DNA from: Hydrurus foetidus
Taxonomy: Eukaryota
DNA length: 64,000 bases
Reading direction: 5' to 3'
NCBI GenBank assembly: GCA_900617105.1
Contig: UYFQ01000574.1
Coordinates: forward strand, 1 to 64,000
Positions 6,849 to 59,276 of this stretch are shown here, one piece after another (within the stretch, counting starts at the first letter, position 1; each line of letters starts with the position of its first letter). The position numbers and the translations under genes are program-made. The notes below the pieces were generated by a model, which ran no database searches, had not been told where the DNA came from, and saw only the letters and a program-made list of their open reading frames with translations.

Positions 6849-8730
6849 GTCATAGTTGTAGGTTTTGGAAATTTATAAGGAGGAGGTTGGTGGTAGAGAG
6901 GGCAGCGTCAGTTAATGTTGGCCCAGATGTAGAGCATTTGATAATGATATGTGTTAGTGAGCGAAGGGGGTCTGGTTGGTAGGTAGCGCCGCACCGTTGC
7001 ATGTATCCCAAACTGAAAAGATTGGCAGGGATGTTTGCGGAGTAATAGACATGGTTCATGTTGGCGGTGATGGGTAGGTGTTTGAGGAATCCTTCGTGTG
7101 TGATGACACAGTGACCACCAACACCAGACAGTGAGAAGGGCTTCCGAAGAGGTGTGAGATTGTATAAGAGAGTAATGTTGTTGACGGTGTGGAATGAGCA
7201 CGCGTTGTCCCAGTATGATGGTTTATGGGGGTGTGGAGAGGGCACGTGTGTTGGTTGAGTTGACGGCCGTTGTAGTGTGACAGGAGCAAGAAGACCTGTT
7301 GCGTCGGCCATTGCGGTGGGTCAGAGTAGCGTATCCGGGAAATCGGCAGCTGCAATGGCGGCTTCGGCAATGAGCATCATTGCATTGTTGGTGTCGTTGG
7401 GCGATTCAGTTGACTCCAGTTGGCTGAGTAGTGCTCGAAGGTGCGATGTTGTAGAAGGTGCTTTGTTGTTGTTAAGGGATGGAGTGGTGGTGCGATTTGG
7501 ATTTTTGGAACAGTTACTTGCTAGATGACCGAAACGCTGAACTTTATCGGCGGCTAGGCACCAAGAGCAAGGCAGTGGGTGGAGGTGTGGCGTTTTGGGG
7601 GATCCGGATGTTGTCTTTTTGTTTGATTTGTCGGATGTTGGCGTCTGTTTGAGATGTTGTGGTGGTGTGTTTGCTATTAAGGCAGATCCTTGCGTTGATA
7701 TGGCATCGTGAGGGATTGATAGTGCATGAGCTATTTTCCAATTTTGAAGTTCTGTCATTAAGAGACTTGTATTTGGGAATCGTCCTGATGATGTTGCGTG
7801 GAGTAAGTCATCGAGTGGTCGGCGAAAGTGAGTGCTGAGGCCTTGTAGGTATATGGCACTGGTGAATTTGCTAATGGAGACGTAGCCGGGGTGTTCAGCA
7901 AATTTGAAGTCTAGTCGGAATATGTCTGCTTGGTTTGTGATCTGCTCCATGTACGATTCATGCGACATGCTGTCTTGGGTTGCCGTAAGGAATCGTCGAG
8001 TGCGGTGTTTTGTAGAAGCATTGCCCGTGGAATGATTATCTCTAACCATCTTGTAATACTCGAAGCTACGAGCTCCAATTGGTAATAGTTGGTATGCGGC
8101 GAAGTTGGCGTGGGCGCGGATGGATGTATGTGATGCGAGGGATATATGACTGCAGATGTAGTCGAGTAGGGCTGTGTCGAAGTCTGAAAACTTATTGGCT
8201 GCGTCGTGATAAATTTTGAGGTCAGCTCTGAGTTCAGTGCTTCCTCGGTCGCTGAGAGGTAGGGGGGATGGGTTAAAATTTTCGGTGGCGACTTCGGCAG
8301 CTGTGAGTTGCCTTCGAGGATACACGAATTGATTTGGTAGTGGAATGCCGGCTGCGTTCTTTTCCAAGTCGAATTTTGTTTGTGGTAGCGGGAAGGGAGT
8401 GAGAGGGATGATCTTGTCGGTAATGATTTGTTGTCCAGCTGCACCAAATTTGGTAGTGCATTGGAGTTTAAATGCCTGGAGAAAGGCTGTCAAATTGTCC
8501 TGAAGGAGGTCGAGGACAATGGCAGGTAATGCGGTTGCTAACGGAGTGTGGCTATTAAGCATACTTTATAACCAAATGTCGGAATTGGCTGTGAAAGCGA
8601 AGAGCTTAACGGATGAAACAGATTTGGTTATAAGCTTACTGCTTACTGAAGCTAATGATATGTGGATTGTGATCGAGAGACGATGTTGTGGTGTATGTGA
8701 CATGTGCGTATTGGACGACAGTTTAATGAC
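6849..8730 (-). mobile_element. Truncated Ty1/Copia element (copy B), a divergent relative of the 24458-30106 element
   Basis: gag ORF 7321-8562 and protease ORF 6850-7311 (SYWDNACSFH) are homologous to 28561-29800 and the region downstream of it. LTR edge TGTCGG at 8577; outer LTR boundary approximate. Confidence 0.85.
7321..8562 (-). CDS. gag: Copia Gag with zinc knuckle (CSWC...GHLASNC)
   Basis: 413-aa ORF homologous to the gag of copy A. It ends in TGA, followed in frame by the protease. Confidence 0.8.
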   Translation of the reverse strand: MLNSHTPLATALPAIVLDLLQDNLTAFLQAFKLQCTTKFGAAGQQIITDKIIPLTPFPLPQTKFDLEKNAAGIPLPNQFVYPRRQLTAAEVATENFNPSPLPLSDRGSTELRADLKIYHDAANKFSDFDTALLDYICSHISLASHTSIRAHANFAAYQLLPIGARSFEYYKMVRDNHSTGNASTKHRTRRFLTATQDSMSHESYMEQITNQADIFRLDFKFAEHPGYVSISKFTSAIYLQGLSTHFRRPLDDLLHATSSGRFPNTSLLMTELQNWKIAHALSIPHDAISTQGSALIANTPPQHLKQTPTSDKSNKKTTSGSPKTPHLHPLPCSWCLAADKVQRFGHLASNCSKNPNRTTTPSLNNNKAPSTTSHLRALLSQLESTESPNDTNNAMMLIAEAAIAAADFPDTLL

Positions 8731-10319: not shown

Positions 10320-10830
10320 GTACTAACTGATACATGGCGATAGTACAGGGGTACGTATGCATGTATATGTATATGAACGTACATGCGTGAGTACTAACTG
10401 CTATATGGCGATATTATAGGAGTACGTATGCATGTGTATGTGTAAGAACGTACATGCGTAAGTACAGTGGTACTTACGTATGTACGCCTATACATCTATG
10501 TACTACGCTATTGGCGATCGTACATACGTACATATTATATATGTACATACATGTGTAAGTATATGTGTGTACGTATGCATATAATAATTTGTACTAACAT
10601 GTGCACGTACGTATGTATGTGTGTGCGTGACCATACAAGTGTACGCTATGCTACATGCGTGCGTACGTACGTACGTACATATTGACTATGTACGTACATG
10701 TGTAAGTACATATGTGTACGTATGCGTAAATGACTATGCACTAACATGTGTAAGTACGTGTGTACGTGTGCATGTTATCATATCTGCATGTGTACTTACG
10801 TACGTACGTGCCGCATAACGTACATGTATA
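10320..10830. repeat. Low-complexity (TACG/TATG)n region with short tandem duplications
   Basis: Dense tacgta/tatgta units; about 10320-10395 is repeated at 10391-10465. Confidence 0.8.
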
Positions 10831-10864: not shown

Positions 10865-11459
10865 GACATATCTTGATAGAATCAAGTGGTCTGACAGAGT
10901 TGGTCAAACAGGGCGACAGCATACGTGACTTCGTTGTTTATGGTGGAGACTTCTTCGTCAAATATCTTAAGTGGGTCGTCTCGACATACCAACCAATTAA
11001 CACGTGTGAGAGTAAATCTTTTCGGGACATGTGCTTCTGCCTCAACAACAAAGTGAAACAGCCGTCGCAAAAATCAGTGAGATTGCATCACGAGTCAAAG
11101 CAACTTTGGAAGTTGAGATGGAAGACCAACACTTTGCACTTACCTGCGATCACTGGACGTCAATTGCAGGGACATTCAATCTAGTCGTGACGATTCACTA
11201 CATAGATGACGACTGGAATTTAGTGTCCTTCACGCTGAGTTGCAATGAAGATACTGGGAGCTCTAAGGCAGATGATATTTTACGTGTTCTCCGAGAAGCT
11301 TGGGTAGCGTACAATCTGGATACAAAGAATCTCGTTGGTGTTGTGACTGATACTGCACCTGTAATGGGAGCCTTTGAGCGAAAGTTACCTGACGGTGTTC
11401 CTCATTTGTACTGCGTTGATCACGTACTCACCGTTAACAACGGTGAGTCAGTCGAATAG
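10865..11459 (+). pseudogene. hAT transposase fragment
   Basis: Motifs LTCDHWTS, VVTIHYIDDDW, VVTDTAPVM and CVDHVL (CxxH); frameshift near 11070-11090. Confidence 0.85.
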
Positions 11460-13329: not shown

Positions 13330-15000
13330 TAGTATTATGTATTGATATCTACAACGTTTGTAAACTTTCTAGGTAATAAACGTTGAAGATTGTTAGATGT
13401 CAAATATTCGTGTAATTTTTCGGTATCACGAAGATTGGCATAGGATGTTCATGAATTGTGTTCATCGGCATAACCTAACCATTTGACGAGGAATTCTAAC
13501 GAAGTTTTGCGTTGTAAGTCACCACGATGTTCAAGGATATTTTCAAAATAAAATTCCATATCATCATGACGAGCAACTTCTAATGATTCAAGACGTAGTG
13601 GATCAAAAATAAAAGTTTCATATCTGAAACATGATATTCTTTTTCGACATGAGAGATAAGATCATAAAGGGTAAACCTTGAATTTGATCCGGAAATAACT
13701 CTCATAGGACCACGCCAGAACGTATGAAGACGTGTAGGCGGGTGACCTGTACGGTAATGTACCAATAGAGTGTTTTTGCAAAAAAAGTTCGCAGCACCCT
13801 CCCCACTCAAAAAAACCAAAAAACTGAAAACGGTGCTGCGAACATTTTCAAGACCCTCCGAACTTCTGGCTTCTCCCGCTCAACAGTGCGAAGGAAAAAA
13901 AAGGCTTCGCAGCACCCCTTTTAACCGTAAAACTGTCTATTTAGCCGGCAGATTCGGGAGAATTCATCAGCGGGTTCTAAATTTTGTGTTCGCACATTGG
14001 GAGGACTCTGCACAATTGACCACGAATATCCTCCAGCTAAAACATATTAACCACATCGACCAAAAAAAATTTCAAATGGCGGAAAACTAAATACAGAGAA
14101 TTGAAGCCACTCTCTGTGCTGTCATTAACATGTAACTTTCGATGTGGTGAGGTCAATGCGGCATCTTCAAAATCCGATTCCTAATTAATTACGCACGCCA
14201 ACTCCGTCGAGTCGCTGAAACAAAATTAGCTATTCATCTAAACCATCCACAAAATTACAACTGCAGGATTCAAGATGTATGAGAGAAGTTGGCCGCGGCT
14301 GGCAGGCGACATCGACGGAAGAGTCTTCGAGCGCAGGATGCCAAAATCTCGCGAGAGACAACGTCCTATGCCGTCGCCGCCGCGAGCGCCGCCGCCGCAA
14401 ATGGAGCTTGAAAAAGTGTGGACGCCCTTATTTGCGGTGATAATTTGCCATCGCCACCGTTGCCACCGCCGCCGCGGCCCGCCGTAATCATATTTGGTCA
14501 CCCTGTAACTGTGGTGTATAGCTAGCTCTTGCTGCAGTATTTGGCGTGCAGCTTTTACATTTGTTTCGGCTTGTAACATATTAATGATACATCTATAGTC
14601 AAAACTCTCTGTTATGACCTTCCTTTGGAGACTACCGAGCCTAGAAAGGTCTCAACCACTCCCACAGTACCGTGGAGTGGCTTAAAAAACAGCTTAAATT
14701 TGACGATAAAAGTCACTGTTCTTGTCAATTGCTGCTGCCAAATGATGATTGAGAAGACAGACAAATTTGTTTTGACGACACAGAAGTTGCTGGAAGCCTA
14801 GCTACTTCGTGAGAAGTCATCAGGCTTAGCATATACTTAGGCCGATACTGTCCGGTACAAAAGATGGTGCAGCGAACTGTACGCTATGCAAAAACACAAA
14901 ATGCAAAAAAAGTTCGCAGCACTGCCCACTGCTGCGAACTTTTTTTTGCAAAAACACTCTAATACATACGTTTCGGGTTGGTAATCCGTGAGACCGTGTA
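13330..15000 (-). pseudogene. Third Gypsy chromovirus remnant (GPY/F plus chromodomain), split by a TIR element
   Basis: GLTDYQPETYV (about 14964-14995) joins in frame to LVHYRTGHPPTRLHTFWRGP (ending 13766) once 13767-14960 is removed. Chromodomain-like FLVKWLGY lies near 13470-13495. Confidence 0.85.
13767..14960. mobile_element. Non-autonomous TIR DNA transposon with 3-bp TSD AAT (PIF/Harbinger-like)
   Basis: About 30-bp TIRs (AGAGTGTTTTTGCAAAAAAAGTTCGCAGCA), AAT on both sides, and subterminal TTCGCAGCA repeats. Confidence 0.85.
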
Positions 15001-15286
15001 TTACGACCGCGGAATAAAAGTAGCACTTTCGCGCTGAAAAAAACGCCTGATGAGGGGGGGGTGCACAACCAAAAGCGTGGAGGGGGGGGGTGCGCAACCA
15101 ATATGTTATCGCGCTATTGTAGACTATATAGACTATGTAGCAATCTCCCTATCGCCCACCCTCTCTGGCCCATCAATTTCAATTGACAGTAGTTGAGCGA
15201 TCGTCTAAGTTGTGCCTTTCGGATCGATTTTGCGGAGAACTTTTTATCATCTCAAGATTTTTGCTGTCATTATTGTGAAACTGAAA

Positions 15287-16060
15287 ATGAAGATGCAAAG
15301 GAAGAACGGCGTTGCAAAGAAGGCGGTCAGGAGAACAAAGGCAGTTTTGATTCCCACAATCAAGTGGTTGATGGCTGACAACTTGTGTCTCTTGTATGCT
15401 ATTTGGGAGATGTGTACTCCTCTTCAGAAGCTGATCTTGACGGTAACCAAATGATTAACTTTCATTCAAGGCTGAACCCTCCTGCAAATGGCATCTCTTC
15501 TCATAAGCTACTATCAACTTCAGATGAACGGAAATTTATCCTTCGTTGACTCCTTCAAAAAGACAATGAACTTGCTGCCGAGTCAAAAGGTTATCAAAGG
15601 CATTTCTTCAGCGGATGTAAATTATTATCTTAGGTGGCTAAAATCATACTTGTTTGATCTAAACATTGAGGTAGATTATGTTTGGAGAAGAGTGAAAAAA
15701 GTAGATAAGAATACTTCTCGACACTTCAATGGTGACAGTGTCTATAAACTAATGAATGGTCGTATCGGTCAATACATTCTTTTTGGGAAAGCGAAGTGGA
15801 ATAATGACGCTCATCGAAAGCAAATAAAAAGATTGCGAGCTGCTGGGAACGAAAGGATGAGATTCAAAATCTACGGTATCATTGCTAATGGGACAAAGCA
15901 ATCTGATCATGCTGTTGGTGTATTCATTCGTGTTGATGATGATCATGTACTTTACGACAACTCCATGCGTAACATATCTTTGAAACTTACTGCGGACAGT
16001 CTAGCAAACAAAATGTCTGATGTGAGCTGCTGTTACATATTTGATTTGAAACATTTGTAA
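15287..16060 (+). CDS. Putative papain/C39-like cysteine peptidase, 2 exons (15287-15442, 15524-16060), about 230 aa
   Basis: A phase-0 GT-AG intron joins NLCLLYAI to DHAVGV and VLYDN. Homologous along its length to 20939-21559. Confidence 0.65.
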
Positions 16061-16650
16061 TATCAATTGATAATTTTATTCGGGTAGAACCCAACTTTGA
16101 AGTCGGGGCAAGAACGAATCAAGGAGGAACAACAGTTCTTCGTGCTCTGACCCTTCTGATAAAGTCTTGCCTGAACCAAAAGTCTGTAGCATCACTTAAT
16201 ATATCACTTACGGATTGTGATCATACAGGTAGATTATTATTTATAAATCAGTAGCCCTATCAAATTTAAAGTCACCGTGATTTATCATTTTATTCTTTAT
16301 TTTGAAAGTCACCGTGATTTATCCTTTGTGTGAACCATGTTGAAATTACCACAACCTATTCTCATAGTATTCACCATGATTCATAAACCAGATTGAATCT
16401 TATCATGTTTTTAGGGTATTCACTGTCGATTTACTTTTACAAAAGTCACCGTGATTTTACTGTTAAAAGTCACCGTGATTTCTGGACGGTGACTTCAATC
16501 ACGGTGACTCTCCATCAAAATGTGGCGCTCCAAAAGGTAACGCATAAGTTATGATGGATATGTCTGAGTAACTTCTGATGACTTTTATTCTTGTGGCTGA
16601 TTCGGCTCTTTCTTTAAAGTTTCTTTTACTGCGAATGTAACGAGTATTAT

Positions 16651-17109
16651 TTACGAGTGAATCATAACATCTTCGGTTGCGGGATACTTAATGGATGAAA
16701 TCGAAATGAACAGTCTATAATTTTCATGCTTGTAATCTGAACCTGCATGTATCATATCACCTCTGAAGAAAAGCATGCTTGATTTGGGAATGTGTATCTT
16801 AGTATCTAGTGATCCACAATAGAAGAATGTGTTTTCCATTATAGCAATTAAGGCAGAGTAGTGAAATCCTTTGAGCCATCTATTGCTGATAACCATTTGC
16901 AATATTTCTTGGTGTTCTAGGGACATCACACCAGGGATAGATCTTCGATGTCGCAAAGGTTTGCAGTTTCCTGTACGATTAAGCATCCTAAGCCACTTCC
17001 TTCCAGTGTTATATGAAATCTTGCAGTGAATAGCTGCATCTTTGACGGAAAAATGATCAATCAAAACTTTTGAAACGAACAATTGACGATGAGATTTGTC
17101 CTTTGTCAT
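16651..17109 (-). pseudogene. Chimeric ORF: transposase-like HTH fused to a 2OG-Fe(II)/cupin-like C-terminus
   Basis: N-terminus SVKDAAIHCKISYNTGRKWL (HTH-like). C-terminus SMLFFRGDMIHAGSDY...NYRLF (distal His plus Arg, as in 2OG oxygenases). No DDE domain. Confidence 0.5.
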
Positions 17110-17748
17110 CGAGAATCGAAATCAACCGTGATAAAATCAGAATGGAAGTGACATTGGGCAGCAATATGACGTTCTGTGATGTAATGAGAATGGTTGCGCA
17201 CCTTCCCCCCCTCCACACTTCGAAGTGGTTGTGCACCCCCCCCTGTGCAGGATTTCCGTTTCGAAGTGCTACTTTTATTCTGCGGTCGTAAGAGAGAAAG
17301 AGAATCGGCACCCATTTGCGGCCATACTAAATCAATAGAAAATCTACCAAAAGAATAGAAAAAAAACTATATCGTGGATTAAAATACTGAAAATATGTAA
17401 TGCTCTACTATAACATTTGTCTGACTAAATATGTGTAATTCAAACTATTCTAATAGAAATTGTACTGAAAACTACAAGACAGTACTATTTAAATGTAATT
17501 TTGTACTAATATCTGGGCATCCGTTACACACGTATCAAATCAAATGAATTCCAACTAATTGCGTATACTGAACAGCAAATTACGGGAAATGTGCTTAAAT
17601 TGAGGCACCGATAGCTAAAATCTGTAATTGAAAGTCCAAAGAAATGAGCGGCTACTAGAACATGTAATAGCGACTGTCGATTCATGCCTGTCTTTCGGTT
17701 CAGCGAGTTGCAACTTTTGCGCCGTTGCCACTATTCTACAATTGAGCG

Positions 17749-19894
17749 ATGGAGGATCTAGGGAATCGATTCAGAGGCAATGGTTTTCAATGGACATTTC
17801 TACGATCCTTCAGCGAAGGTGATCATAGTGGCGATATTGCTTGTCGCTTTTCGTGGAACTAAACTATCGCATTTTTTACTCTAGAGCCTGAAGTAGCAGC
17901 TTTACTCCTTGAATTGGGAGTCAAAGTTGGTAGAGTCAACTACAACGCAACTTGCACGACCTCTTACTATATCTGTAATACGGGAGGTTGCAGGAAGCAA
18001 TACAGAGTCGTCAAATTATTAGATGACACTGACGACGACGACGTTGACAATCTATTCATTGAGGAAATCGCAAATGAAGTTCATGATCATACTGCGGCAG
18101 ATGTTATTCTCAGGGGATTGTCACCGCGGCAAAAGGAAATCGTCCTTCAATGCTTAATGAGGAAGCAAGGCATGCCCAAACGTGTCATCGACGAGTTTGT
18201 TCGTCAGGCCGCAATTCAACTGGCAGCAAACTTACCAGTTGTTCCAACTCCAACGACGGACATGATATCAAGCTTCACATCTCATTATCGTAAACGTGAG
18301 AGGGGTGGGATCGCTGTTGGCAAGACATCTCTTCAGGACTTGGAAACTTTTGCACGAGAGAACAGAATAGGTAAGCAGATTTACTCAATAAACAAAAGAA
18401 GCTTAACGAGCTAATACAGCGTAATCTGATATCAGTTTTAGATCAAGGTCTCGATGTAGCTGCAGTATTGGACTACGAGCACGATGACCAAGTTAGGGAT
18501 CCCTACTTCTCTATATTATTTTCTACTCCCCGCTTGATCGATGGCACGCATCTGACCCGTCCAATTGAAATGGACGATACCTACAAGCTTATTCATGAAG
18601 GATTCACAGTAACTGTGTTAGGTCAGACAGATGCGGATCGCGTATTTCACACGAGAGCAATTGGAATCTCGTCAAATAGTACAGAGAGGGTTGGTGCATT
18701 TTACCTCCGTGCCTGGAGAGACAGAGTTCCACTATTCACCCCTCGTGCATACTTGGGAGATGCAGCAGAAGCCTACGCCAACGCTGCACGGCAGACATTT
18801 CCGTCCATTGCTGTCCGATTGATGTGCTTCGCGCACGTGTACAAAGTAAGTCTGGCAAGTAAAGTGAAGTAAATAGTTGAATTCAATCTAAGAAATTTTC
18901 TTTATCTAATACAACTCCAACTTCGCAGAATGTGGAGAAGCAGACGAAAAGGATCCACGATCAGGCCGTCAGAGCAATGTTTCTCCAAGACATTAATGCG
19001 TTATCTCTGTCGTTCACCGCAGAGCAAGCCCTACAGGCGGTTGCATTATTTCTCGTCAAATGGGAGGCCAGTGAAAACGCAGTAGTGCTGAATGTCACCT
19101 CCCATTTCAGGACTCAGTGGACAAACAATCTTGTAAGTAACTGGACAAGAGGGCACTGTCCTAATTGCGTCATCAATAATAACGGACTCGAGGCAACCAA
19201 TGGAGTTATAAAGAACGAGGTAACCCAGAGAAGGCTGTTGCCTGTACTGAATTTCTTCGTAGAAATATCGAGGTGGCTTGGTGCCCAGTCTATAAGGAGG
19301 GATCCAGCAAATCCTAATCCAATCCCATTTACCAGCGTCCATACGATCATGACAAGCGACTGGACTGAGGCTTACAGATGGTCTAGAGACACTGCCCGAC
19401 AAGTTCGTATCACGAATGATGGGAGCTACGTAGCCGTCAATAGCGATGTAAGGGGTGATTTGACAGATGATAAAGCAGCCAATTTCGTGGCGAAGTTCAC
19501 AAATTTTTCGTTCGAATCCTTTGATGATTTCACAACGACATCAAATAACGTATGTGTTATCAGACCCGATCTTACTAGGCAAGAAGGGTACAATTGTACT
19601 TGTGCAGTGAATGCAAAGAAGCACAGCTGCAGTCACTCCCTCGGTGTCGCTATCATCCGAGGCACTCTTGTTCCTCCCAGAGATGCTATGGTCACCCTCC
19701 TCGGACGTAAGAGAAAAAGAGGAAGAAAGCCACAAGCTGCACCTGCCTGGGAGCACCAACCCTTCGATATTGTTTCTCCTCAGCACCATCCCCAGCAAAA
19801 TCCTGCTATCCTTGCGGGTGTAGTTGCGCCTCCGAATCCTCAACATGCTATATTAGAAGAGCACATTGAACAACCTGATGCCATTGAACAGTAA
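17749..19894 (+). CDS. MULE transposase with SWIM zinc finger, 4 exons (17749-17818, 17885-18370, 18442-18845, 18929-19894), about 641 aa
   Basis: GT-AG introns give one open frame. Motifs MDDTYK, LGDAAEAY, MCFAHV, NNGLEATN and SWIM CTC...CSH. Confidence 0.9.
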
Positions 19895-20938
19895 TCATTT
19901 GACGTGAGTTCTCATTGAAATTGTCTTAATATTCCCAGTATTTTTAGTATCATACTTCGTATCGACTGCGTGATTTTGCACCGTTTTACTTGCCAGTCAT
20001 GCAAGATCAGTTACATATTGAACCATCACCTGGTAGCTATGCATTCGATGTTGTTGGGTAATGTGTCACCGCCAACTAATCAATCATTAGAGTTCCAGAG
20101 ACTTTTCTTCTTAAGCAGGAACGAAGAGAGTGAGAGATGAGAGGAGGTCATTGTATGAAGGAGGCAGGGGAGCAAAATGGTCAGTGAATGCTTAGTGGAA
20201 CGTCACTGGAGGGCGAAATGTCACTGCATGGAGAAACGTCATCGCATGGCGGAAGCTAATGTGGACGCTTTTGGCGATATGTCACTGCATGGCAAAATGT
20301 CATCGCATGGCGGAAGCTAATGTGGACGCTTTTGCACCTTGTGCTTTGGCAACTTATGCTCTGACTTATTAATAAGCTGTCCAAGAAAAAACTGTTACGA
20401 ATCATGTTGCTTTTGGTAGCATGCATCTCTCCGATCGTCATACCTATACAGTGTTCATGAACTCAACCATTACTTCATATAAGTGCTTTACACAAGAGTC
20501 ATTACTGTCTCAAGCACTCAGATTCAGTCATTGTCGAGTGCATGAAAACGGTATAGGCATGACGAAACGATAGGTGTATGCTACGTCATCAACCTATGTT
20601 ATCTTCGGCGTTACAATGTTTAGTGCAGCAGGAAAACACATACCAGTAACTCAGCAAACAATTTTAAAACTAAATGCATGCACAAACAATGCACTCGAAA
20701 GAAAAGACTTAAGCAGAAAAATGCTCCAGCACTTGAGATGAAGCATGTCCGTAATGCCTGCAAGAAAAGTAGTTTTAATATACCAGACACCTGGAAAGGA
20801 GAAACTTACGAGTGTGTCAAGTTCGTAAGTGAGCCAACCACGCCAATTACTTCGGGGAATTTCTTTTGAATCCGGGACACGTTGTCGCAAGAAATTTCGA
20901 AGAATTGAGGGAAGGCCCTTGGAAATAGAAAAATTATA

Positions 20939-21559
20939 TTACTCCTTGACTTCGTACAGATTAACATAGAAACAATGAGAAACATCACCCATTTTATCAG
21001 CGAGGTGAAGGATGTCAAATTTTACACTGCCTTTGCGGCATGCGGTATCAAAAAGTAAATTGCCGGTATCTGCGATGCGAACACCAACCGAATGGTCGAT
21101 ACATTTACGACCGTTTGCTGTCTTCAAGTACTGAAGAGCTCTCGCCTCCTCTCCTTCGACGGCTCGGATCCTCTTCAGAATCTTAGGGTGCTCATCGTCG
21201 AGCTCTTTGCTAAGACCGATGAGGACGTAGTGGCCTTTCCTATTGACGACCGTCTTCATGATCGACCCCACGTCCCAATTCTTGAGCTTTCCCACCCTGC
21301 CGTTCACTCGCTTAAGTTCGTACTTGAGAATGATTCCTCTCTTACGGTTCTCTTCGACGACGAATTCGAAGAACTTCCTAGCGTCATGTGTGCTGGCGCC
21401 TTCGTGATCAGGGTCAGTAAGATCGATGCCGGTCGCATCCACGAAAACTTTTCCAGCGTCGTCTCCGCCGAGTCTCATCCACTCCTGTTGCTCCGCCGTC
21501 ATTAGCAAAACAATTGCGGCCGCGAAACACAGATTGCGACTCGGTTTGAATTCGTGCAT
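20939..21559 (-). CDS. Putative papain/C39-like cysteine peptidase, MULE cargo
   Basis: 206-aa ORF with NLCFAAAI, GASTHD, DHSVGV and LLFD; homolog of 15287-16060. Confidence 0.65.
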   Translation of the reverse strand: MHEFKPSRNLCFAAAIVLLMTAEQQEWMRLGGDDAGKVFVDATGIDLTDPDHEGASTHDARKFFEFVVEENRKRGIILKYELKRVNGRVGKLKNWDVGSIMKTVVNRKGHYVLIGLSKELDDEHPKILKRIRAVEGEEARALQYLKTANGRKCIDHSVGVRIADTGNLLFDTACRKGSVKFDILHLADKMGDVSHCFYVNLYEVKE

Positions 21560-23104
21560 GATTGATTTCTGATTCCACTTAAGCTATACTGCAGTATATA
21601 TCATACTTGACATCTTCAAATTAAGAGTCACTTTCACGTTCAGTGTCTAACGTATTTTTCAGGTTTTTTCATGCCGTTACTTTTCATGCCGTTACTTTTC
21701 ATGCCGTTACTTTTCATGTCCTGGTTCCATCAAATAGAACTAAATCCGTAAATTAGTACTGTGCAACCATTTCAGTATAACTTCTTAGAAATAGTAGGTT
21801 GATCTCCATTTTAGTCAGGGTTACATTGAATAGTACCAAATCCATGAATTAGTATTGCGCAACTATTTCAGTGTAACTTCTATGAAATAGTAGCCTGGTC
21901 TGCAATTTAAGGTATCAAATCCATATTTCAGTATGGCTATGTTTTGGTCAAGTTTACAAGATTTTAGTAGAGAACGTTAGTTATAGTATTTTTTTCCAGA
22001 TTTTAGTATGTCCATATATTTACCCGAAGAGAATCTGGCAAAGTCTACCGGACTTTTTGAAATATTGGGGGAATTTGCAAATATTCGTTGTGTGACGATG
22101 AAGTCAAATCAAGGTTATCTCCAGGTATGGTCTCGACTTCTCAACTCCTCTCGACCTCGAACTTTTGAAACCCCCCGACAACTCCACAACGTGGAACGTT
22201 GAGTGGATAACCGCTAAAAGCTTCGTAACAGCATGCGTAGCGGAGTTTGAAACAGATGATTGATACATTGCAACAAAAACATATTAGTTCAACATGGGAA
22301 ACGCAAACACAAACGTAAGATCACCCACTCAGCCATCACTCGCGAGAACAGCAATGATCTAATCACTAGTTCATCACGTCAATCGATCCCCTCACATCTT
22401 ATCTGAACATGTCGTGGCATCCTCTTATCATTCGCAGCCAAGTGCCATGTTCGGCAAAGACTCCAAATTTTCAACCGATGGTAAAACCAAAGAATCAGTT
22501 ACAACTCCGATCCAGTACGAACCCCTCGCCGTCCCTCCAAACTATTCGAAGAACTCCCCACCAATGATCGACTACAGCAAACTTAAACATCCAGAGGTTT
22601 TACCTGATGTGAAGACCTTAGTAGCTATGATACCGACAACATATGCCAACGGCACCTTATCATACAACAAGAAGTTCTACGCTAGTTACGTTCCGAACAC
22701 CATAATTGGTGACGTGTAAGCATTCAAAACAATCAATAGCGTCATTTCCAAGGTTGGCAGAACTGACGTCGCTCAGAACAACAAGAAGTGATCGATCTGC
22801 CCTCGCCCCTACGTGTGTTGTAAATTTTTGTATCAGGCAAAGCGATTTGAAATGTTAACAGGCGACTGCCAGCAGGAACTGTAATTAATTAGATTACTGA
22901 CGAGAGACACTTGTCCGGGCAAGAGCCTTGCGGTATACTTTCTACCAGATAGATGAGAGAAGACAAGAATAAATATACCACTGTGAATAAACTTATGAAA
23001 TCTAGAAAAATGCCGGCGATAATGATTGAGCGACCAGAGATCCAGAATTCGACTGAATGTCACTTCGCGAACATTGCTGCGGAACTGCCAAATATCGCAC
23101 CAGT

Positions 23105-24807: not shown

Positions 24808-27800
24808 CTATGTTTTACGAGTTGACGGAATATTTAACAGTTGGCTCCGAAACCATAGGAATTTAGAAGGGGATAGAGTTTTAGTGAGCCCATCCGCTAT
24901 CATATCATGAGTGCTTATGTGGCGGGGTGCAATTTGGTTTGTTTTAAATAGCCAGCGGACGTAATGTGATTTAAGGGCTATGTGGCGCGATTTGCGTGTA
25001 ATTTGGTTGGCTGTGGTCAGGTTAATGGCGGGTTGATTGTCTTCAAGTATGGTAGTGGGTTGGTGTTGTGGGAATCCTATGTCAGCAGCGAACTGTCGAA
25101 AGAAAACGACATCTTTGGCGCAGCGACCGAGTGCAAGGTATTCTGCTTCACAGGGGCTGAGGGCGATACCTGATGTTTCCGCTGAGGAGTGGACAACGAA
25201 GGGTGCATTAACTGTGCCTATTTGGATGGTGTAAGCAGAGTGGGAGTGACCATCTGGATGGCATGCGTGTGAGGAGTCTGCAGCCGCGAAGATGGTGACG
25301 CCGGATGTGAAAGCAAGTGGGTCGGTGGAGTAGGTTGGGCCGAGGTTAGGGCAGCCTTTTAGGTAGCGAAGGAGATGGATTTGTTTGGAGAGGTCTGATT
25401 GAGTTGGTGCAGAGTTGCGGGTACAAAGATGGACGACTTCTTTGCGGATATCGTGGCGAATAGGAAGAAGGAATACGAGGGTTCCATTGATTCGTAGAAA
25501 GCGTGTGCGGTCAACGGGGGTTAGGTCAGTTGGAGCATCGAAAAAATTGGAGGTGGAGGGAGTGAGAGCGGGTGGGACAAGGTCCATTCCTGATTGGTGG
25601 AGGAACTTGATTATGTGTGCGCCTTGATCTAGAGTGCAGGAGTGGTCAGAATGTCGGGTAAGGCGGACACCACAGACGCCTGTGGAGGCATCGTTGAATG
25701 CAATTGTGCCGTAGCGAGTCTGTAGGATGTGTTTTAGTTCATTTTGTAGAGTAGTGGATGTTGTTACATACCAGCCGTCGTCAACGTGCATATTAAGAGT
25801 GAGTGAGTCGTCAGTATTGACGGGACATCGCTTGTGAAAACTATGGTGATCTGATGCAGTGGGGATGAATCCAGCTTCTGTGAGGGTATGTATTAGATCT
25901 TTATCGTATTCGTGGTTAGCTTGCTTTATGCCGTAGCAGCAGCCAGTTATCTCTGCAAGCTTGCCTGCAAGGGGGCTTGGAAGGTCTGGTGGAAGGATGG
26001 CAATGAGTTGATGCCCGTTGGTCATATCACGTGTAAGCTTGTTGTGGAGAAAGGCTCCAGGGAAGTCGAAGTCGCCTAGGAGGAGGCGGTCAAGACAACT
26101 GCGATGGGAGGCATCTGCTAAGTAGGCACTTAGTATGAAAGCACGGTTGGTGGTGTCGGAAGTGCCTGCGTAGGTGTTGTTGTAGGATTCTGGCGGCTGG
26201 CGACTGCCGTCGATGGCTAGGCGGGCGGTAACAAGGCCGTTGGACTTTTTCTTAATGAGCATTTGGCTGCGAAGAAAGATTGCCTTTGTTTCGACACTCG
26301 ACTGAGGAATGAGAGTTAGGGACTGGTATGTGTCGAAATGTTTTCCTAGTTCTTTTGAAATTCCTGTGGCAACATCGGCCGTGGGAAGGAGTAATGAGGC
26401 TTTGCGAATGGACATTTCTGCACGTGAGCTGGGTAGGGGTTGCGGTTGGAAGTCAGTATGCCTATTGTTCAGGGGAGTGTTGGAGGGGTTGTTGAGTCTG
26501 TGTTGCTTGTTTCTAGCCGCTGCCAGTTTAGCATTATCAAGCTTGCGTTGAATTGCATTGATGTAGGCAGAGATAGATGGGTTCGACTTTATCAAAGGAG
26601 TGCTAAAGCAGCCCTTCCAAAAGTTAGTTGGGTGTGAGGCCCTAGGTGACCTACGTAGTGCGGCTGGTGTCTCGGGTGGTAGGTTGGGTAGTAGTGTCCC
26701 GAGAGGTATTGGTGTTGGTGTTGGTGTTGGTGTTGGTGTTGGTGTTGGTGTTGGTGTTGGTGTTGGTGTTGGTGTTGGTGTTGGTGTTGGTGTTGGTGTT
26801 GGTGTTGGTGTTGGTAGTGCAAAAGTTGGAGCTGAAGCACGGGGTATGTAGTCTTGGTGTAGTTGAGGTTGGGGCATCAAGAGGGAGGAGTGGAGGTCAG
26901 CGGGTAGCGGAGATGGAATGTAACCGGTGACTGTAGCTATGGCTTCAGTGTGAGCGATGCCTGGTAGTTGGATGACCTCATTTGGAGTGCTAGCAACTGG
27001 TGGGAGTTCGTAGTCTGGAATTGTTGATTGGATAACGTATGGCTTGGAGGTCCAATCGAAAGGTACAAAGTGTTGTGGGAAAGGGGTGGTAGGTCTTCTG
27101 GGAACAATGGAGCCGTTAGCAAGGAGGAAAAGCGTACGGCCTGTGAGGGTATCTGGGCCCATGCAAACTCCAAGTTCAGCTTTGGGTTCGGCATTGGCTG
27201 CGGTGTGGTTGTTGCGAGCAAGGGCATGGCGTTTGTCGGGATGTTGAGTTACCATGCAACAGCGGCCGAAAGGAAAGGGGCGTCGGGTGGGTTTATAGCC
27301 TCGGAGGAGCTCATCTGGAGTTGATGGGGCGCTGCGGGTGTTCATTAGAGTATTGCGGACAGCAGCGATGGCTTTGTGTAGGTGAAGGGTGTACTTTAGT
27401 GGGAGGTGGTACGGTAGTGCTGATAGTGTGGCAGTGGTGATTTGCCGGATGGTAAGAATTGAGCGTTCAACACGGGCAGCGTGCTCACCAGGAGGTGATG
27501 TCTGAAGTGTTATCCCTAGCGAACCGAGTGGGCTTGCGAGTGATGTATTCACTTTCTCGCAGTCGCCGTGTAGTGTTTGGACTCGGTGGCGATTTGAGTT
27601 GTATGTGACGGATATGATGTGCTGTAGGGCTTTGAACATGGCGGGAGTTGATTTCGAGGAGGAGCCAATCACGGAAATATGTCCTGTGAATTCGTCGACT
27701 AGTATGATCTCGTGTGTATGCATGCCCGGGGATGGTTCGGGGAGTAGCTGTGGATCAAAGCTGATAACAGCACCGACGGAGGTTGCGGGAGCGCTTGTTG

Positions 27801-28560
27801 AAGGAGGATGAGAGGGGTTGCGGTGTTTACCCGCTGTACAATGGGGGCAGGGGCCTCGAAGTTGGCGGTTGAGGGTGACATCGGTGCATGTGAGGGTACT
27901 GAAGGGGAGCTTGCCCGTGGAGAGGTTGGCGCAGAGGCTGCGGTCAGATGGGTGGCAGAGATCATTGTGGAGTTCTTCTGCTGCATCAGCGCGTGCCCTT
28001 TGTTCGGCGTTAGCATGAAGGGTGGGGAAGGTGGTGGACATAGCGAGGGGTTGGTAGTATGCTGCGGGAGACAACGTAGAGGCGTGGTGGAGTGCGGCGA
28101 AGTCGACTGGTAGTAGGTTGTGTGCGGTTAGAGTTGCATGCGCTAGGAGGGGACCGGATGGTGAAGAGAGGATGGAAATGTGAGTGTGGGGACGGAGAGG
28201 ATCAGGGCTGTATGAGGCTCCACATCTTTGAAGTTGGCCGAGACTGAGGAGATTGACGGGTATGGTGGGGGAGAAGTATGCTGAGTTCATGGACTTTGTA
28301 GTGGGGAGGCAGAGGAGACGGCCGCTATGTGTGACTGGACATGATCCACCTACTACTCCGATGGAGAAGGGCGTGGCGAGTGGGATCATATTGTAGAGGA
28401 GCGAGGCGTCGTTGACTGTATGAAAAGAGCATGCGTTGTCCCAATACGAGGCGTTGGGTGTTGAAGGGATTGCTGTAGGGGAGGCGAGAGCGAGAGGACT
28501 GGAGAACAGGGCGGAGGGATTTGATGCGTGACAGAGGTTGATGGCAGGGTTGGATCCTAG
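24808..28560 (-). CDS. pol: Copia Pol (protease, integrase, RT, RNase H), in frame after the gag TGA
   Basis: SYWDNACSFH; LHNDLCH..CPHC; D,D,E; DFPGAFLH; YGIKQA; HVDD; ADSSHA; EAEY; EDNQ; ADGLTK. Open from 28560 to 24808. Confidence 0.93.
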   Translation of the reverse strand, partial: LGSNPAINLCHASNPSALFSSPLALASPTAIPSTPNASYWDNACSFHTVNDASLLYNMIPLATPFSIGVVGGSCPVTHSGRLLCLPTTKSMNSAYFSPTIPVNLLSLGQLQRCGASYSPDPLRPHTHISILSSPSGPLLAHATLTAHNLLPVDFAALHHASTLSPAAYYQPLAMSTTFPTLHANAEQRARADAAEELHNDLCHPSDRSLCANLSTGKLPFSTLTCTDVTLNRQLRGPCPHCTAGKHRNPSHPPSTSAPATSVGAVISFDPQLLPEPSPGMHTHEIILVDEFTGHISVIGSSSKSTPAMFKALQHIISVTYNSNRHRVQTLHGDCEKVNTSLASPLGSLGITLQTSPPGEHAARVERSILTIRQITTATLSALPYHLPLKYTLHLHKAIAAVRNTLMNTRSAPSTPDELLRGYKPTRRPFPFGRCCMVTQHPDKRHALARNNHTAANAEPKAELGVCMGPDTLTGRTLFLLANGSIVPRRPTTPFPQHFVPFDWTSKPYVIQSTIPDYELPPVASTPNEVIQLPGIAHTEAIATVTGYIPSPLPADLHSSLLMPQPQLHQDYIPRASAPTFALPTPTPTPTPTPTPTPTPTPTPTPTPTPTPTPTPTPIPLGTLLPNLPPETPAALRRSPRASHPTNFWKGCFSTPLIKSNPSISAYINAIQRKLDNAKLAAARNKQHRLNNPSNTPLNNRHTDFQPQPLPSSRAEMSIRKASLLLPTADVATGISKELGKHFDTYQSLTLIPQSSVETKAIFLRSQMLIKKKSNGLVTARLAIDGSRQPPESYNNTYAGTSDTTNRAFILSAYLADASHRSCLDRLLLGDFDFPGAFLHNKLTRDMTNGHQLIAILPPDLPSPLAGKLAEITGCCYGIKQANHEYDKDLIHTLTEAGFIPTASDHHSFHKRCPVNTDDSLTLNMHVDDGWYVTTSTTLQNELKHILQTRYGTIAFNDASTGVCGVRLTRHSDHSCTLDQGAHIIKFLHQSGMDLVPPALTPSTSNFFDAPTDLTPVDRTRFLRINGTLVFLLPIRHDIRKEVVHLCTRNSAPTQSDLSKQIHLLRYLKGCPNLGPTYSTDPLAFTSGVTIFAAADSSHACHPDGHSHSAYTIQIGTVNAPFVVHSSAETSGIALSPCEAEYLALGRCAKDVVFFRQFAADIGFPQHQPTTILEDNQPAINLTTANQITRKSRHIALKSHYVRWLFKTNQIAPRHISTHDMIADGLTKTLSPSKFLWFRSQLLNIPSTRKT
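26711..26815. repeat. (GGTGTT)n hexamer encoding a (PT)n linker between integrase and RT
   Basis: About 17 perfect units, in frame within pol. Confidence 0.95.
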
Positions 28561-29800
28561 TCAGGCGGTGTCTACGTATTCTGAAGCCTCGATGGCGGCC
28601 TCGGCGATGAGGAGCATGGCCGCGTTGGATGCATCTGGGGTGGCTGCGAGATCAAGTTGGGTAAGGAGTGCTCGAAGACGCTGCGATGTGCTGGAGGGGT
28701 AGTGGGACGATGGTTGCGGAGGAGAGGTTGAGTTTGGGTTTGGTACGCGGTTGGGGTTCTTAGAGCAATGTGCGGAGAGGTGACCGAAGCGTTGGATCTT
28801 ATCTTTAGCTAGACACCAGGTGCATGGAGTTGGGTGAAGATGGGGCTTAGGGGCGTTGGGGATGTTGCCTGCAGTCTTGGCAGCTGGAGATTTGGTGCGA
28901 GTGGTGATGGGTTGGGACGCAAGAAGGGCAGAGCCTTGAGTGGACACGTCGTCGCGGGTGAAGGAGAGTGAGTTGGCGATTTTCCAGGCCTGGAGTTGTG
29001 ACATTAGGGCTGTAGGATCAGGAAAGCGGCCAGTTGGGTGGTTGTGGAGGAGTTCATCTAGTGCGCGGCGGAACTCAGTACGGTTGAGGCCAGCGAGATA
29101 TAGGAAGCTGGTGAGCTCTGGGATGGATACAAAGCCAGGATGGACGGTGGATTCGAAATCCAATTTGAATGTCTCTGTCATTGAGTTGACAAGGTCGATG
29201 TAGGCTTCGTGGGGTAGGTCAGATTGTGTAATGTTCATGTAGTTGCGTGTGCGATGAAGCTTGGTTGCTGCGTTGCCGATGGAGTGGATGCCCCGGATCA
29301 TGACGTAAAAGGCGTAGCTGCGCGCTCCGATTGCCAGCAGTTGGTATGCAGGGTAATTAGCATGTGTTTTGATGGCGATGTGGGAGGCAAGAGATATGTG
29401 TCTGTAGAGATGATCGAGGCAATCGGTGTCTTGGTCTGAAAAGCGCCGTTGGGCATCATTGAAGATCTTCTTGTCGTCGCGGTAGTTGGTGTTGCCTTGG
29501 GTGCTGAGTTGGAGGTGGAGTGCGTTGCCGGCTGGTTCGCCTTCGGGTGGAGTGCGGCGTTGGTAAATGTATTCTCCTGGGATTGGTGTGCCAGCAGGAT
29601 CGAGGTCGAGATCGTTCATGGTTGGTTCGTTTGCGAATGGATGTAGAGGGATGAGTCGTGATCGGTGAGGAAATTTGGTTGCCTGCGACGCCAAATTTGG
29701 TGAAGCATAATAGTTTCAGAGACTGGTTCCATGTGGACCAGTTGTCTTGATGGAGGTCGAGAAGTGGCGCTGGTGCCAATGAGGTTGCCTTGGATAGCAT
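28561..29800 (-). CDS. gag: Copia Gag with a frameshift near 29655-29670
   Basis: The N-terminus (ORF 29456-29800) and the body (ORF 28561-29694) each align to the single gag ORF 7321-8562. Zinc knuckle CTWC...GHLSAHC. Confidence 0.8.
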
Positions 29801-55592: not shown

Positions 55593-56404
55593 TACTATAT
55601 CGGAGCTACAATGAATAAATATTACCGGGACAGAATAAAATGTCCAGTAGATATGAACGAATCCGAGGTGGAAATGGTGATTTCAACAGCGCTCAAACCT
55701 GTTTTCCTTCTCTGTTTTGGACATTTTATTCTGTCCTGGTAATATACTGTAACTTTTCGGATTGGAATGTATTGACTTTTTCCGTCAACATGAGCAGACA
55801 GCAGACCGTGCTGATAAATCGTTGTACACGCAGTAGTGCCGTATGTTAGCAGTGACGACTGTGCGATAAAGGAGCATAAAGTGCTTGCGACATTGATTTA
55901 TTGACGTCACTGGAAACGTGGCATTGATTCCAGCTGCTGATACCATGGATTGAATTGGTTAGGACCCACTAGATCTTTTTTCAGTAAATAAATCCCACCT
56001 TACAACTTTCGGCACCCAACTCTCACCTTCCAACTCAACTCACTTTACAACTTTCACCTTACAACTCAACTCACCTTACAACTTTCACCTTACAACTCTA
56101 CTCACCTTACAACTCCCACCTTACAACTCTCACCTTACAACCCTCACCTCACGACTTATTCACCTTGCAACTCCGACTCATAGGTGGCGGAAATTTAAAA
56201 AAAGTTTATCGAAGTGTATTTTTTAATCTCAGTATAATATCTGTTATTTCTTTACTTTCGCTTTTTCAATTTTTTCTAGTGAACAGCCAATTATTCTCCG
56301 AGGCATTCAATCGAAAGGCACTTTACGATTTTCTTTAGATAAAGTGGGCCTTGATCATGAGCGACAAACTTTCTGAAGCCAACCGCACCAAAATGCAAAA
56401 TCTT

Positions 56405-56480
56405 CGCGTCCTTGGAAAAATCGAACCCTCGGTCCTGATGGTGTGAGCCCCACGCCGTACCACTTAGCTACACAGAAACC
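56405..56480 (-). other. tRNA-like (Val-CAC-like) degenerate sequence with A and B boxes
   Basis: Minus strand GGTTTCTGTGTAGCTAAGTGGTA..CTCACAC..GAGGGTTCGATT. Stems pair poorly, so probably not a functional tRNA. Confidence 0.45.
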
Positions 56481-56690
56481 GCGTACACAACGGCAAAAAT
56501 ACACAAACAAATAGTACGTTCATACTTAGGCTTATCGTCACCTCGGGTCAACACTTCACAGAACACTGTTAGATTCATCTTTTTGACGTTATGAAAATTG
56601 AAATGCAAAAATCTAAAAGGTTATAATTGATATTATGTCATCTCTATTCCTGATAGAAAATCTCGTCAACTTGCTAAATTTCTTTGTACG

Positions 56691-58312
56691 ATGCTTCATT
56701 TTAGCAGGAAGTCCGCGAAAGGAAATAATCTGTTGCAGATGAACAACAAGTTATTTTCTAAAACCAAATTTGCTCATGATGTTAATGGAGAAATAACAAA
56801 ATGCTATTGGGTTTGCGTAAACATTCGCAAAGGCTGTAAGGCGAAGGTTCATTATGAGGTGGACCTTGATGTAGCGGGTCCAGGTTACGATGGAATGACA
56901 GATGGAATCATCAACGTCGTAGCGACTGATCATGACGATGAGTATTGCGTTACAGATGAGATGGACATTGCCGTTAGAAATGCAAGGAACAATGTGCTTA
57001 GAGAATCAACCTCTGGTAAGTTCAATACCGTATTTCACTATAAAAAAGTTGTTTTTCTGATTTGTATCATTTTCAGGTGTGGACCTATACGTTGCATATG
57101 CAAATGTAATGAATCCTATTCAGCTGGATAATCCAGTAGCTGCAGGACAGATGTTTACTGCGGACAGTCTGCATAGCGCCTATAGTCGACGAAGGCTCTC
57201 TGTCTTACCAAGATTACCTATTGGCTACAACGACGTTATTATACCAGAAGAATACAGAAGAGCTGAGAATGGGCATCAATTTCTACTTTTCCAAGATTCC
57301 TTTCCAAATATTCCTGGCGGACCTCTCGAGAACCATATTCTATGTTTTGGTACAAGGAAATTCTTAAAGAAAATGTGCAATGCAACAGTAGTTCACATGG
57401 AGGGGACTTTTCAAGTTTGTCCAGCACCTTATCAGCAACTTTTTACCATTTGCTCATTTCATCACGATGACAACAGATTGCTTCCGAGAATGTATTGCTT
57501 ACTAAGCGGAAAATCTCATATCGTTTACGAAAGGTTCTTCCAACTCGTCATCGAGAAAGCCGCTCATTGAAACTACGATATCAACTGGCAGAAGTCGATG
57601 AACATTCCATTTTTGCCGCTTTGACAGTGAAGTTTCCAGATGTTGATAAAAAGGGATGTCACATTCATTATTGTCAAGCGCTATTCAGGAGAATTCAGCG
57701 CAATATGAAAGTAAGTTTCAAATTTATAGTGTTCCTTCCTTTACCTGAGATTTGATTTTTTTCAATTATCATGATCATTAGGTAGCATACGATCGGGAAG
57801 AGACTGGTCTAAGAGTGGTGATGAGAAAAAAATTTGCATTAGCGTTTCTCCGACACGAAAAAACTCCCACACAGATCGCTGATCTTCGCCAAGTTCTCAA
57901 CATTCTCACCAACGATCTAATGGCATTAGTCGGAGACGACATTAGTGCTGCTCATGTAAATGACTTCCTTCAGTACTTCAACCATACTTGGATGGGGCGT
58001 TTACGGTCTTGGAACGTCTATGGATTGAACAAGAACAGAACAAACAATCACATGGAAGGTTGGCATTCTCATCTCATCCAAATGATTAACAGCAATCCTA
58101 ACCTCTGGAAGTTCATCACAAAAATCAAATCAGAGCAGACTGCCAAAGAACTGGAGCAAAATCAGATGAATAACGAGGCAATCATTGTCCCACTCACACA
58201 CAAACTGAAGGAAAAAGAACGAAGGCTAGCAAGAAGCAAACAACGGTATAACAATAATGAGTTAACCCCACTCGAGTATGTTTCAACGATTTCTAATCTT
58301 ATGCATTACTAA
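56691..58312 (+). pseudogene. FLYWCH-MULE transposase, disrupted
   Basis: YWVC..CKAKV; HMEGTF (usually DGTF); GCHIHYCQA; RTNNHMEGWH. Stop and deletion at about 57570-57600. Confidence 0.85.
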
Positions 58313-59276
58313 ATCATATACGAAATCTAACTTGAATCGTCGATACGACTTTAGGGAACCATCCACCATACCATCATCGATTGCAAATTTCGTCACTAAA
58401 TCCCGACATAATCATCAATTAATCGAAGGCACTTTACTGTCGTACGTAACTCTAAGCCTCGCTCTACGTGGTCGAATTCTGACTTCTGATAAAACAGTAT
58501 CGAATTAATCATATATATATTTTGATTACACATTTCAATAAATAATAAGAACGATTTCAATTCATTTTAATAATTCAAGTCATCAGCACATAAAAGATTT
58601 TGCCACTAGAATTCGCTGTTCAGTTGAAAATGATTTGAAAATATGATTCGAGGGTTCGATTTTTCCAAGGACGCGAAGATTTTGCATTTTGGTGCGGTTG
58701 GCTTCAGAAAGTTTGTCGCTCATGATCAAGGCCCACTTTATCTAAAGAAAATCGTAAAGTGCCTTTCGATTGAATGCCTCAGAGAATAATTGGCTGTTCA
58801 CTAGAAGAAAATTGAAAAAGCGAAAGTAAAGAAATAACAGATATTATACTGAGATTAAAAAATACACTTCGATAAACTTTTTTTTAAATTTCCGCCACCT
58901 ATGAGTCGGAGTTGCAAGGTGAATAAGTCGTGAGGTGAGGGTTGTAAGGTGAGAGTTGTAAGGTGGGAGTTGTAAGGTGAGTAGAGTTGTAAGGTGAAAG
59001 TTGTAAGGTGAGTTGAGTTGTAAGGTGAAAGTTGTAAAGTGAGTTGAGTTGGAAGGTGAGAGTTGGGTGCCGAAAGTTGTAAGGTGGGATTTATTTACTG
59101 AAAAAAGATCTAGTGAGCGATGACCACTGAATTGCATACCAAATGTGACACGAAATGTGACACGAAATGTGACGTGTTTCGCTAATGCGGAAATTAAAAA
59201 ATGAATGATGTCTGCATGGATTATGTGCATAATACAGCAAACAGTGTTACCTTGCGGTGTGAACTATCTATTGTAC

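Follow-up and report, generated by a model that had tools for sequence, protein, structure and literature searches.

The 64,000-nucleotide window analysed here (positions 1 to 64,000 of contig UYFQ01000574.1, assembly GCA_900617105.1, Hydrurus foetidus) contains two adjacent DNA transposons of different superfamilies, a Tc1/IS630-like element (element 1) and a Mutator-like element (MULE; element 2). Each of them carries an unbroken gene of one old family of predicted papain-type proteins with a Cys-His-Asp active site. Judged by its sequences, the family is new and unnamed, within a known kind of transposon cargo. We consider it probable that these genes encode an active accessory enzyme of the transposons.

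Two transposons with related genes

Neither peptidase gene has an internal stop (Table 1). Aligned end to end, the products of gene 1 and gene 2 are identical at 64 of 200 positions, with a score of 176, and none of 500 shuffles exceeded 46, which rules out chance similarity; exon 2 of gene 1 gave an E-value of 6e-20 in BLASTP. The preliminary description of this DNA, made from the letters alone, had reported intact homologous genes in both elements, one with an intron and one without, and both points were borne out. The predicted 81-bp intron of gene 1 is supported by relatives: P0052 is free of it and P0026 reads through, with the same two exons joined, and both P0026 and P0110 have an in-frame insert at its position. 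No third copy of the gene was found in the window.

Both genes are convergent to the transposase-side open reading frame (ORF) of their own element. This layout had been described earlier and stands, except that the "transposase ORF" of element 1 is a chimera. It joins transposase residues 1-76 to the tail of a likely dioxygenase, and the DDE domain is absent. Element 1 is therefore, as this junction indicates, derived by internal deletion from a parent that had three or more genes, of which the peptidase gene alone was left whole; with the catalytic domain of its transposase deleted, the copy is not autonomous. The preliminary description had missed both the deletion and the likely dioxygenase. 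The assignment to Tc1/IS630 follows from the TA duplication, the terminal inverted repeats (TIRs) and, through the cluster of full transposases represented by P0245, a helix-turn-helix (HTH) with DD34E; P0245 matched DDE_3 at E 2e-20 and the IS630 model at 108 bits, with D-34-E spacing.

The dioxygenase tail in element 1 keeps the His and Arg ligands, and HxD was lost in the deletion. It belongs to an unnamed family of 274-279 residues (P0244, P0246, P0250, P0251; L003:403-1008), in which an N-terminal Cys/His cluster and HxD...H...R are common to all four full-length relatives. We take the latter arrangement to be the layout of a 2-oxoglutarate/Fe(II) dioxygenase. A Pfam search with the family gave no match, and the profile leads for the P0244-type protein were weak (a PhyH-containing cluster, score 0.79; a 2OG-Fe(II) oxygenase in PDB, E 0.25). 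The family probably represents zinc-finger 2-oxoglutarate dioxygenases that Tc1-type elements carry, and could be a second counter-silencing cargo.

Element 2 is assigned to the MULEs by a transposase with DDE and CxxH. This protein reads free of stops across three GT-AG introns, and one exon matched the Pfam family MULE (PF10551) at E 1.8e-5 with 25.5 bits, slightly below the cut-off of 27.6. Its motifs are, as we name them, D-D-CxxH-E and a C-terminal SWIM-like finger. The element is flanked by a direct repeat of 9 bp without mismatch, AAGAGAATC. Chance alone produced such a duplication in 20% of trials when the wide search space was used and in 0.7% within 40 bp; because of the former value (0.20) the repeat by itself is weak evidence. 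For the 60-bp ends, 85 of 1000 shuffles and 10 of 1000 window segments equalled or exceeded the inverted similarity; for the 250-bp ends, none of 1000 shuffles and one of 1000 random window segments did. The end positions are probable, and rest on a single copy. Of the two elements as first delimited, element 1 with its TA and TIRs of about 100 bp was upheld; the MULE transposase proved unbroken over 641 residues, and the terminal repeats of the MULE came out weak. Tandem repeats occur in the MULE at two places: 2 x 61 bp between its convergent genes (20212-20333) and, upstream of its peptidase gene (21666-21909), a set of 3 x 15 bp and one of 2 x 96 bp.

That gene and transposase converge in both elements, together with the high rank of C39 leader peptidases among the fold matches given below, would suit a peptidase that matures or destroys the transposase of its own element. 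We regard this self-regulation as the least probable of the explanations considered: the gene is retained in a copy without transposase, and a cleavage site shared by the Tc1 and MULE transposases is unlikely because the two are unrelated. Survival of the gene in the transposase-less copy would be explained by a protein acting in trans.

Table 1. Coordinates of the two transposons, their genes and their repeats in the window.
Feature	Position	Strand	Remarks
Element 1, non-autonomous Tc1/IS630-like transposon	15004-17288		TA at 15002-15003 and 17289-17290; 28-nt arms 96% complementary, TIR similarity over about 100 bp
Element 1, left TIR	15004-15100	+	two G-run subterminal repeats
Peptidase gene 1, exon 1	15287-15442	+	basic N-terminal tail; N32-x-C34 (predicted nucleophile)
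Peptidase gene 1, predicted intron	15443-15523	+	81 bp, phase 0, GT-AG
Peptidase gene 1, exon 2	15524-16060	+	H181 and D197 of the 230-aa product
Four 26-nt direct repeats	16265-16488		spacer between the convergent genes of element 1
Last ~75 codons of a 274-aa likely 2-oxoglutarate/Fe(II) dioxygenase	16651-16881	-	near-identical to the C-terminus of P0244
First 76 codons (HTH) of a 340-aa DD34E Tc1/IS630-type transposase	16882-17109	-	98.7% identical over 76 aa to P0275
Element 1, right TIR	17191-17288	-	
MULE target duplication, left copy	17298-17306	+	9 bp
Element 2, MULE	17307-22026		degenerate TIRs
MULE transposase	17749-19894	+	641 aa; four predicted exons, 17749-17818, 17885-18370, 18442-18845, 18929-19894
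Peptidase gene 2	20939-21559	-	no intron; 206 aa; N9-x-C11, H156, D171
MULE target duplication, right copy	22027-22035	+	9 bp

Size, conservation and descent of the family

A 10-row profile was searched against 1.84 billion representatives at 50% identity and matched 128 proteins at E<=0.001, 75 of them at 1e-10; one of the 128, the 2154-residue repeat protein P0158, is probably a chance match. Word-based searches gave 13 and 28 clusters at 90% identity. No credible family for the peptidases was obtained from Pfam (window genes and 38 members), NCBIfam or PHROGs, and sequence searches of PDB returned nothing credible. A match to SUZ12 (E 0.0095 over 60 positions) was treated as chance; it presumably sets a helical region against a strand of the model. 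None of the 25 clusters looked up bears a functional name, and their listed members are called "hypothetical protein" at most; these members come from ENA, JGI/IMG and Logan assemblies, with one from NCBI. The family was earlier called uncharacterised, and so we found it. We met no description of it in a literature search whose scope did not extend to Repbase, most subscription journals or any supplements, which could contain one; the available parts of PMC6446971, PMC6431247 and PMC13547354 name no such peptidase family.

Conservation was read from alignment A6, 108 near full-length rows chosen from about 240 family proteins with short fragments excluded, in which many rows are near-copies. 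The Cys region is missing from half of the rows, in most cases since gene calling started at exon 2. Where the residue is present, Asn two before the Cys occurs in 51/51 rows, Cys in 54/54, His in 103/105 and Asp or Asn in 103/104. The less redundant A5 (38 rows) gave His in 38/38, Asp or Asn in 37/37 and Cys in 17/17, two of the latter possibly misaligned. The spacing from Cys to His is 137-169 residues in 51 rows, and the Asp is located 14-25 residues past the His. The isoelectric point (pI) exceeds 9 in 28 of 36 members.

The only relative with DNA, L001 (1334 bp, 34% GC), carries a peptidase gene of the gene 1 type in a third neighbourhood, facing an ORF of at least 330 residues (L001:249-1241, minus strand). 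We take this ORF to have Cys-box and His-box motifs resembling those of USP peptidases; profile searches with it gave no match. Comparison of the peptidases over 65 codons gave proportions of nonsynonymous and synonymous differences of 0.27 (pN) and 0.70 (pS), and a ratio of the corresponding rates (dN/dS) of about 0.16, with dS near saturation. Between the two window copies, for which this ratio had been proposed as a check, dS was saturated, and the estimate comes from L001 instead. Taken with the conserved residues, these sequence data show that the family is under purifying selection, in agreement with the first claim. L001 was found together with L003, which bears the dioxygenase family, in one bacterial metagenome-assembled genome. 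Both are short low-GC contigs resembling eukaryotic transposon fragments, and their presence there is probably binning contamination; no further genome with an L001-type locus was found among 19 of the same genus or 401 of the same family. Metagenome contigs, viral contigs, plasmids and phages supplied no flanking DNA of relatives, and L001 was the single locus that a scan of genome contigs yielded.

In a tree of 45 rows the two window genes fall into separate deep clades, with many deep branches unresolved. In an approximately unbiased (AU) test on 24 rows, a tree holding together five rows of both gene lineages was rejected (p-AU 9e-5); the group for this test was set after the first tree had been viewed. 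The separate clades and the AU test rule out a recent direct transfer between the two window elements. The preliminary description had spoken of exchange between superfamilies; that the family is cargo of two superfamilies stands, a direct exchange between these two elements is weakened. Since the clades are deep, any exchange between superfamilies would be old, and the tree is compatible with either old transfer or independent capture. We propose that different superfamilies picked the gene long ago from a common cargo pool, as reported for ULP1 and TET/JBP.

The position of the window genes, which are not sisters, would also fit two independent captures of an ordinary host gene family from an unsequenced algal lineage, as passive Pack-type cargo without benefit to the elements, the more so as context is known for just two copies and one 1.3-kb contig. 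Against this, both copies are whole and one has retained an intron, near-identical variants occur by dozens per cluster in separate assemblies, and despite the great diversity of the family, all 25 clusters are without a functional name and a single listed member comes from NCBI. Co-location with transposase and dioxygenase also recurs, by matching contig sizes. In the cluster nearest gene 1, two of six members match the longest-contig size of a full dioxygenase (9380 bp) or of a full transposase (2869 bp, 98.7% like that of the window), and there were no such matches among 138 members of other clusters, in a comparison that took in 15 of the 31 transposase members. These matches are indirect and fit co-carriage of peptidase, dioxygenase and transposase in other copies. 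An excess of contigs of 5.8-8.3 kb (19/138) is merely suggestive. Passive capture of a host gene seems to us very unlikely.

Predicted fold and kind of enzyme

The model of gene 2 was built with A6 and reached a pLDDT of 89.2 and a pTM of 0.86. It replaced an earlier model (pLDDT 75), because that one lacked alignment depth at the Cys. C11 opens a helix (11-17), H156 opens a strand (156-163) and D171 follows the next strand (166-170), so that His and Asp stand on a strand hairpin; a helical insert lies ahead of the His strand. The Asn two before the Cys is predicted to be the oxyanion residue. This is the arrangement of papain-like (clan CA) enzymes, with Cys at a helix start and His and Asp/Asn on neighbouring strands. 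In a wide structural search, 47 of the 50 matches listed were papain-fold enzymes and three were unassigned. The top matches were VTD (Z 8.6, rmsd 4.4, 151 aligned), C39 (8.0), Josephin-2 (7.9), M48 (7.8) and staphopain (7.7). C39 and IpaJ clusters were among the language-model neighbours, which are a lead only. We predict a papain-like fold with Cys-His-Asp order, because many middling matches agree with the conserved residues. This is the layout that the preliminary description had proposed. In Foldseek, suggested at the time as a structural check, AvrPphB was the best match, at E 3.6e-3 and a TM-score of 0.32.

Several named classes were considered and rejected. ULP1/C48 of clan CE has His-Asp-Cys order, whereas here, as was claimed from the start, the Cys comes before the His; the Peptidase_C48 profile gave no match. 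Membership in the canonical deubiquitinases (DUBs) and Gly-Gly proteases of ubiquitin-like modifiers (USP, UCH, OTU, Josephin, MINDY, SENP) fails on the residue after the catalytic His, which in 103 rows is Ala in 84, Gly in 15, Ser in two, Pro in one and Cys in one, and aromatic in none. The same absence speaks against Josephin itself. For VTD, UFSP and ATG4 the Asp-x-His site, with Asp two before the His, is lacking in all 103 rows. For C39 there was no Pfam match in any of 38 members, and the His-aromatic motif is absent.

The known systems nearest to the window family share some of its features. In plants, MULEs and CACTAs carry ULP1 domains, and in KI-MULEs the ULP1 gene is opposite to mudrA (PMC2528002); the statement in the preliminary description that MULEs can carry ULP1-type proteases is correct in this respect. 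Ulp1, OTU and C19 domains occur in Ginger1, Helitrons and a Trichomonas transposase (PMC2836005). Both the ULP1 of KAONASHI MULEs and CACTAs and the Ulp1/OTU of Ginger1 and Helitrons resemble the window family as cysteine-peptidase cargo across superfamilies. Unlike this cargo, the window family has no Pfam match, has Cys-His-Asp order and no gatekeeper, forms a stand-alone gene of about 205 residues, and is found also in a Tc1/IS630-type element. VTDs occur in Helitrons (DrT1-VTD2) and herpesviruses (M48), and resemble it in papain fold, transposon carriage and lack of a gatekeeper (PMC9741609; Z 8.6 and 7.8); they have an invariant Asp-x-His, whereas in the window family the His is followed by the Asp 14-25 residues on, and there is no fusion to RepHel. 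C39 and Josephins are alike in their compact Cys-His-Asp papain fold (Z 7.4-8.0) and differ in having an aromatic residue after the His (PMC7391069), which the window family lacks, and by its helical insert before the His strand. For accessory genes of other kinds, TET/JBP genes move among fungal transposon superfamilies by passive transfer, and SET and VANC cargo are similar cases of one accessory family among superfamilies (PMC12730594); TET/JBP is a different enzyme from the peptidase, and the likely dioxygenase that the parent of element 1 bore in addition has no Pfam match and is not assigned to TET/JBP. Ectocarpus transposons carry accessory genes of mostly unknown function (PMC12477816).

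The preliminary description had left the choice between peptidase and deconjugase. The peptidase fold is supported by the model, and canonical ubiquitin or SUMO deconjugation is weakened because the aromatic gatekeeper and D-x-H are absent in 103 of 103 rows. The motif in which the catalytic His is followed by an aromatic amino acid shows a 477-fold enrichment in canonical DUBs and Gly-Gly proteases of ubiquitin-like modifiers (Hermanns et al., PMC7391069). No fused ubiquitin-binding domain was found in the full-length members examined. An atypical deconjugase could nevertheless do without a gatekeeper in removing ubiquitin, in the way of ZUFSP and VTD, or remove ATG8/UFM1-type modifiers, and so shield the transposase from degradation or loosen ubiquitin-based silencing. 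In its favour, the top fold match is the Helitron-encoded VTD with several Josephins close in rank, the known transposon-borne cysteine peptidases that we found are deconjugase families (PMC2836005, PMC2528002, PMC9741609), and the relative on L001 faces the ORF with putative USP-like motifs. A DUB is less likely and still conceivable, because the gatekeeper is lacking in two DUBs, ZUFSP and VTD, and we judge such a deconjugase rather unlikely.

A non-proteolytic enzyme of the same fold, such as a deamidase, acyltransferase or transglutaminase, might alter a host chromatin or ubiquitin-pathway protein. Papain folds with Cys-His-Asp include non-proteolytic enzymes, e.g., OspI, and the viral fold matches include entries annotated as papain-fold glutamine deamidase (E 0.2). 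The nearest solved structures are almost all peptidases, and no feature specific to deamidation was seen, which makes this alternative distinctly unlikely.

We tentatively favour, with somewhat less than even confidence, a transposon accessory protease that is directed at the host and is other than a deconjugase. C58 proteases have a small residue after the His. By analogy with YopT and AvrPphB of this group, the family is most simply read as selective proteases whose triad is conventional. The Ala or Gly after the His would leave the S2 pocket open, as in YopT/AvrPphB, so that the substrate need not end in Gly-Gly. The conventional Cys-His-Asp triad is common to C58 and, as predicted, to the window family, and C58 substrates are of a non-DUB kind (PMC9741609); unlike the window family, C58 enzymes are effectors of bacteria and no transposon cargo, there is no sequence match, and the TM-score is just 0.32. 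The protease would cut a host nuclear protein that otherwise restrains the elements. The high pI of members and the basic tail of gene 1 fit work in the nucleus, where such a basic protein may act in trans. An anti-silencing role is offered as a proposal only.

Several observations weigh against this host-directed protease as carried by transposons. The best Z of 8.6 is middling and the top matches are tied, no structure in the PDB and viral libraries reached E<=0.001 in Foldseek, and ZUFSP and VTD are deubiquitinases which also do without the gatekeeper (PMC9741609). Gene 2 is just mildly basic (pI 8.3). The known genomic context consists of the two window copies, both inside elements, and L001, in which element ends are absent and which is too short to be placed in an element. 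The 2869-bp contig size barely fits transposase, dioxygenase and peptidase together. Finally, another MULE in the window (about 55945-59137) is without a peptidase gene; the gene is thus dispensable for MULEs here.

Setting in the window and meaning of the cargo

The window is of eukaryotic character and transposon-rich, with long terminal repeat retrotransposons, one Ras-family gene and one thioredoxin, whose leader we take to resemble an algal plastid-targeting peptide. A third TA-flanked element with short TIRs (13766-14961) lies 40 bp to the left of element 1 and has no recognisable coding remnant, and the end-to-end run of three DNA transposons spans 8 kb. The second MULE-like element has a FLYWCH transposase gene, and its inverted repeats of about 500 bp (96-98%) are packed with short tandem units. 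Two mutually related Copia-like remnants were seen at 7321-8565 and 24808-29715 (minus strand), the latter with an open pol frame of 1250 residues, which has a long Thr-Pro run, and a single stop between gag and pol. A hAT-like transposase fragment (11016-11459; DUF659, E 1.6e-4) has a low-complexity palindromic TACG/TACA repeat tract (10448-10811) upstream.

The deleted copy shows that several enzyme genes are carried by Tc1/IS630-type elements here. In the widest form of our proposal, algal DNA transposons of several superfamilies would share a counter-defence kit consisting of this protease, the zinc-finger 2-oxoglutarate dioxygenase and the USP-like peptidase, and the peptidase family would act as transposon-encoded effectors in the bacterial manner, cleaving outright a protein of host silencing or chromatin instead of removing ubiquitin or SUMO; in this full extent we hold the proposal to be doubtful. 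The transposon-borne cysteine peptidases found in print (ULP1, OTU, VTD, C19) are ubiquitin- or SUMO-removing families, and the window family is without their sequence marks. Gene 2, with 206 residues, no intron and a confident model, is directly assayable, and the substrate of its product would name a host protein that transposons must disable in a little-studied lineage.

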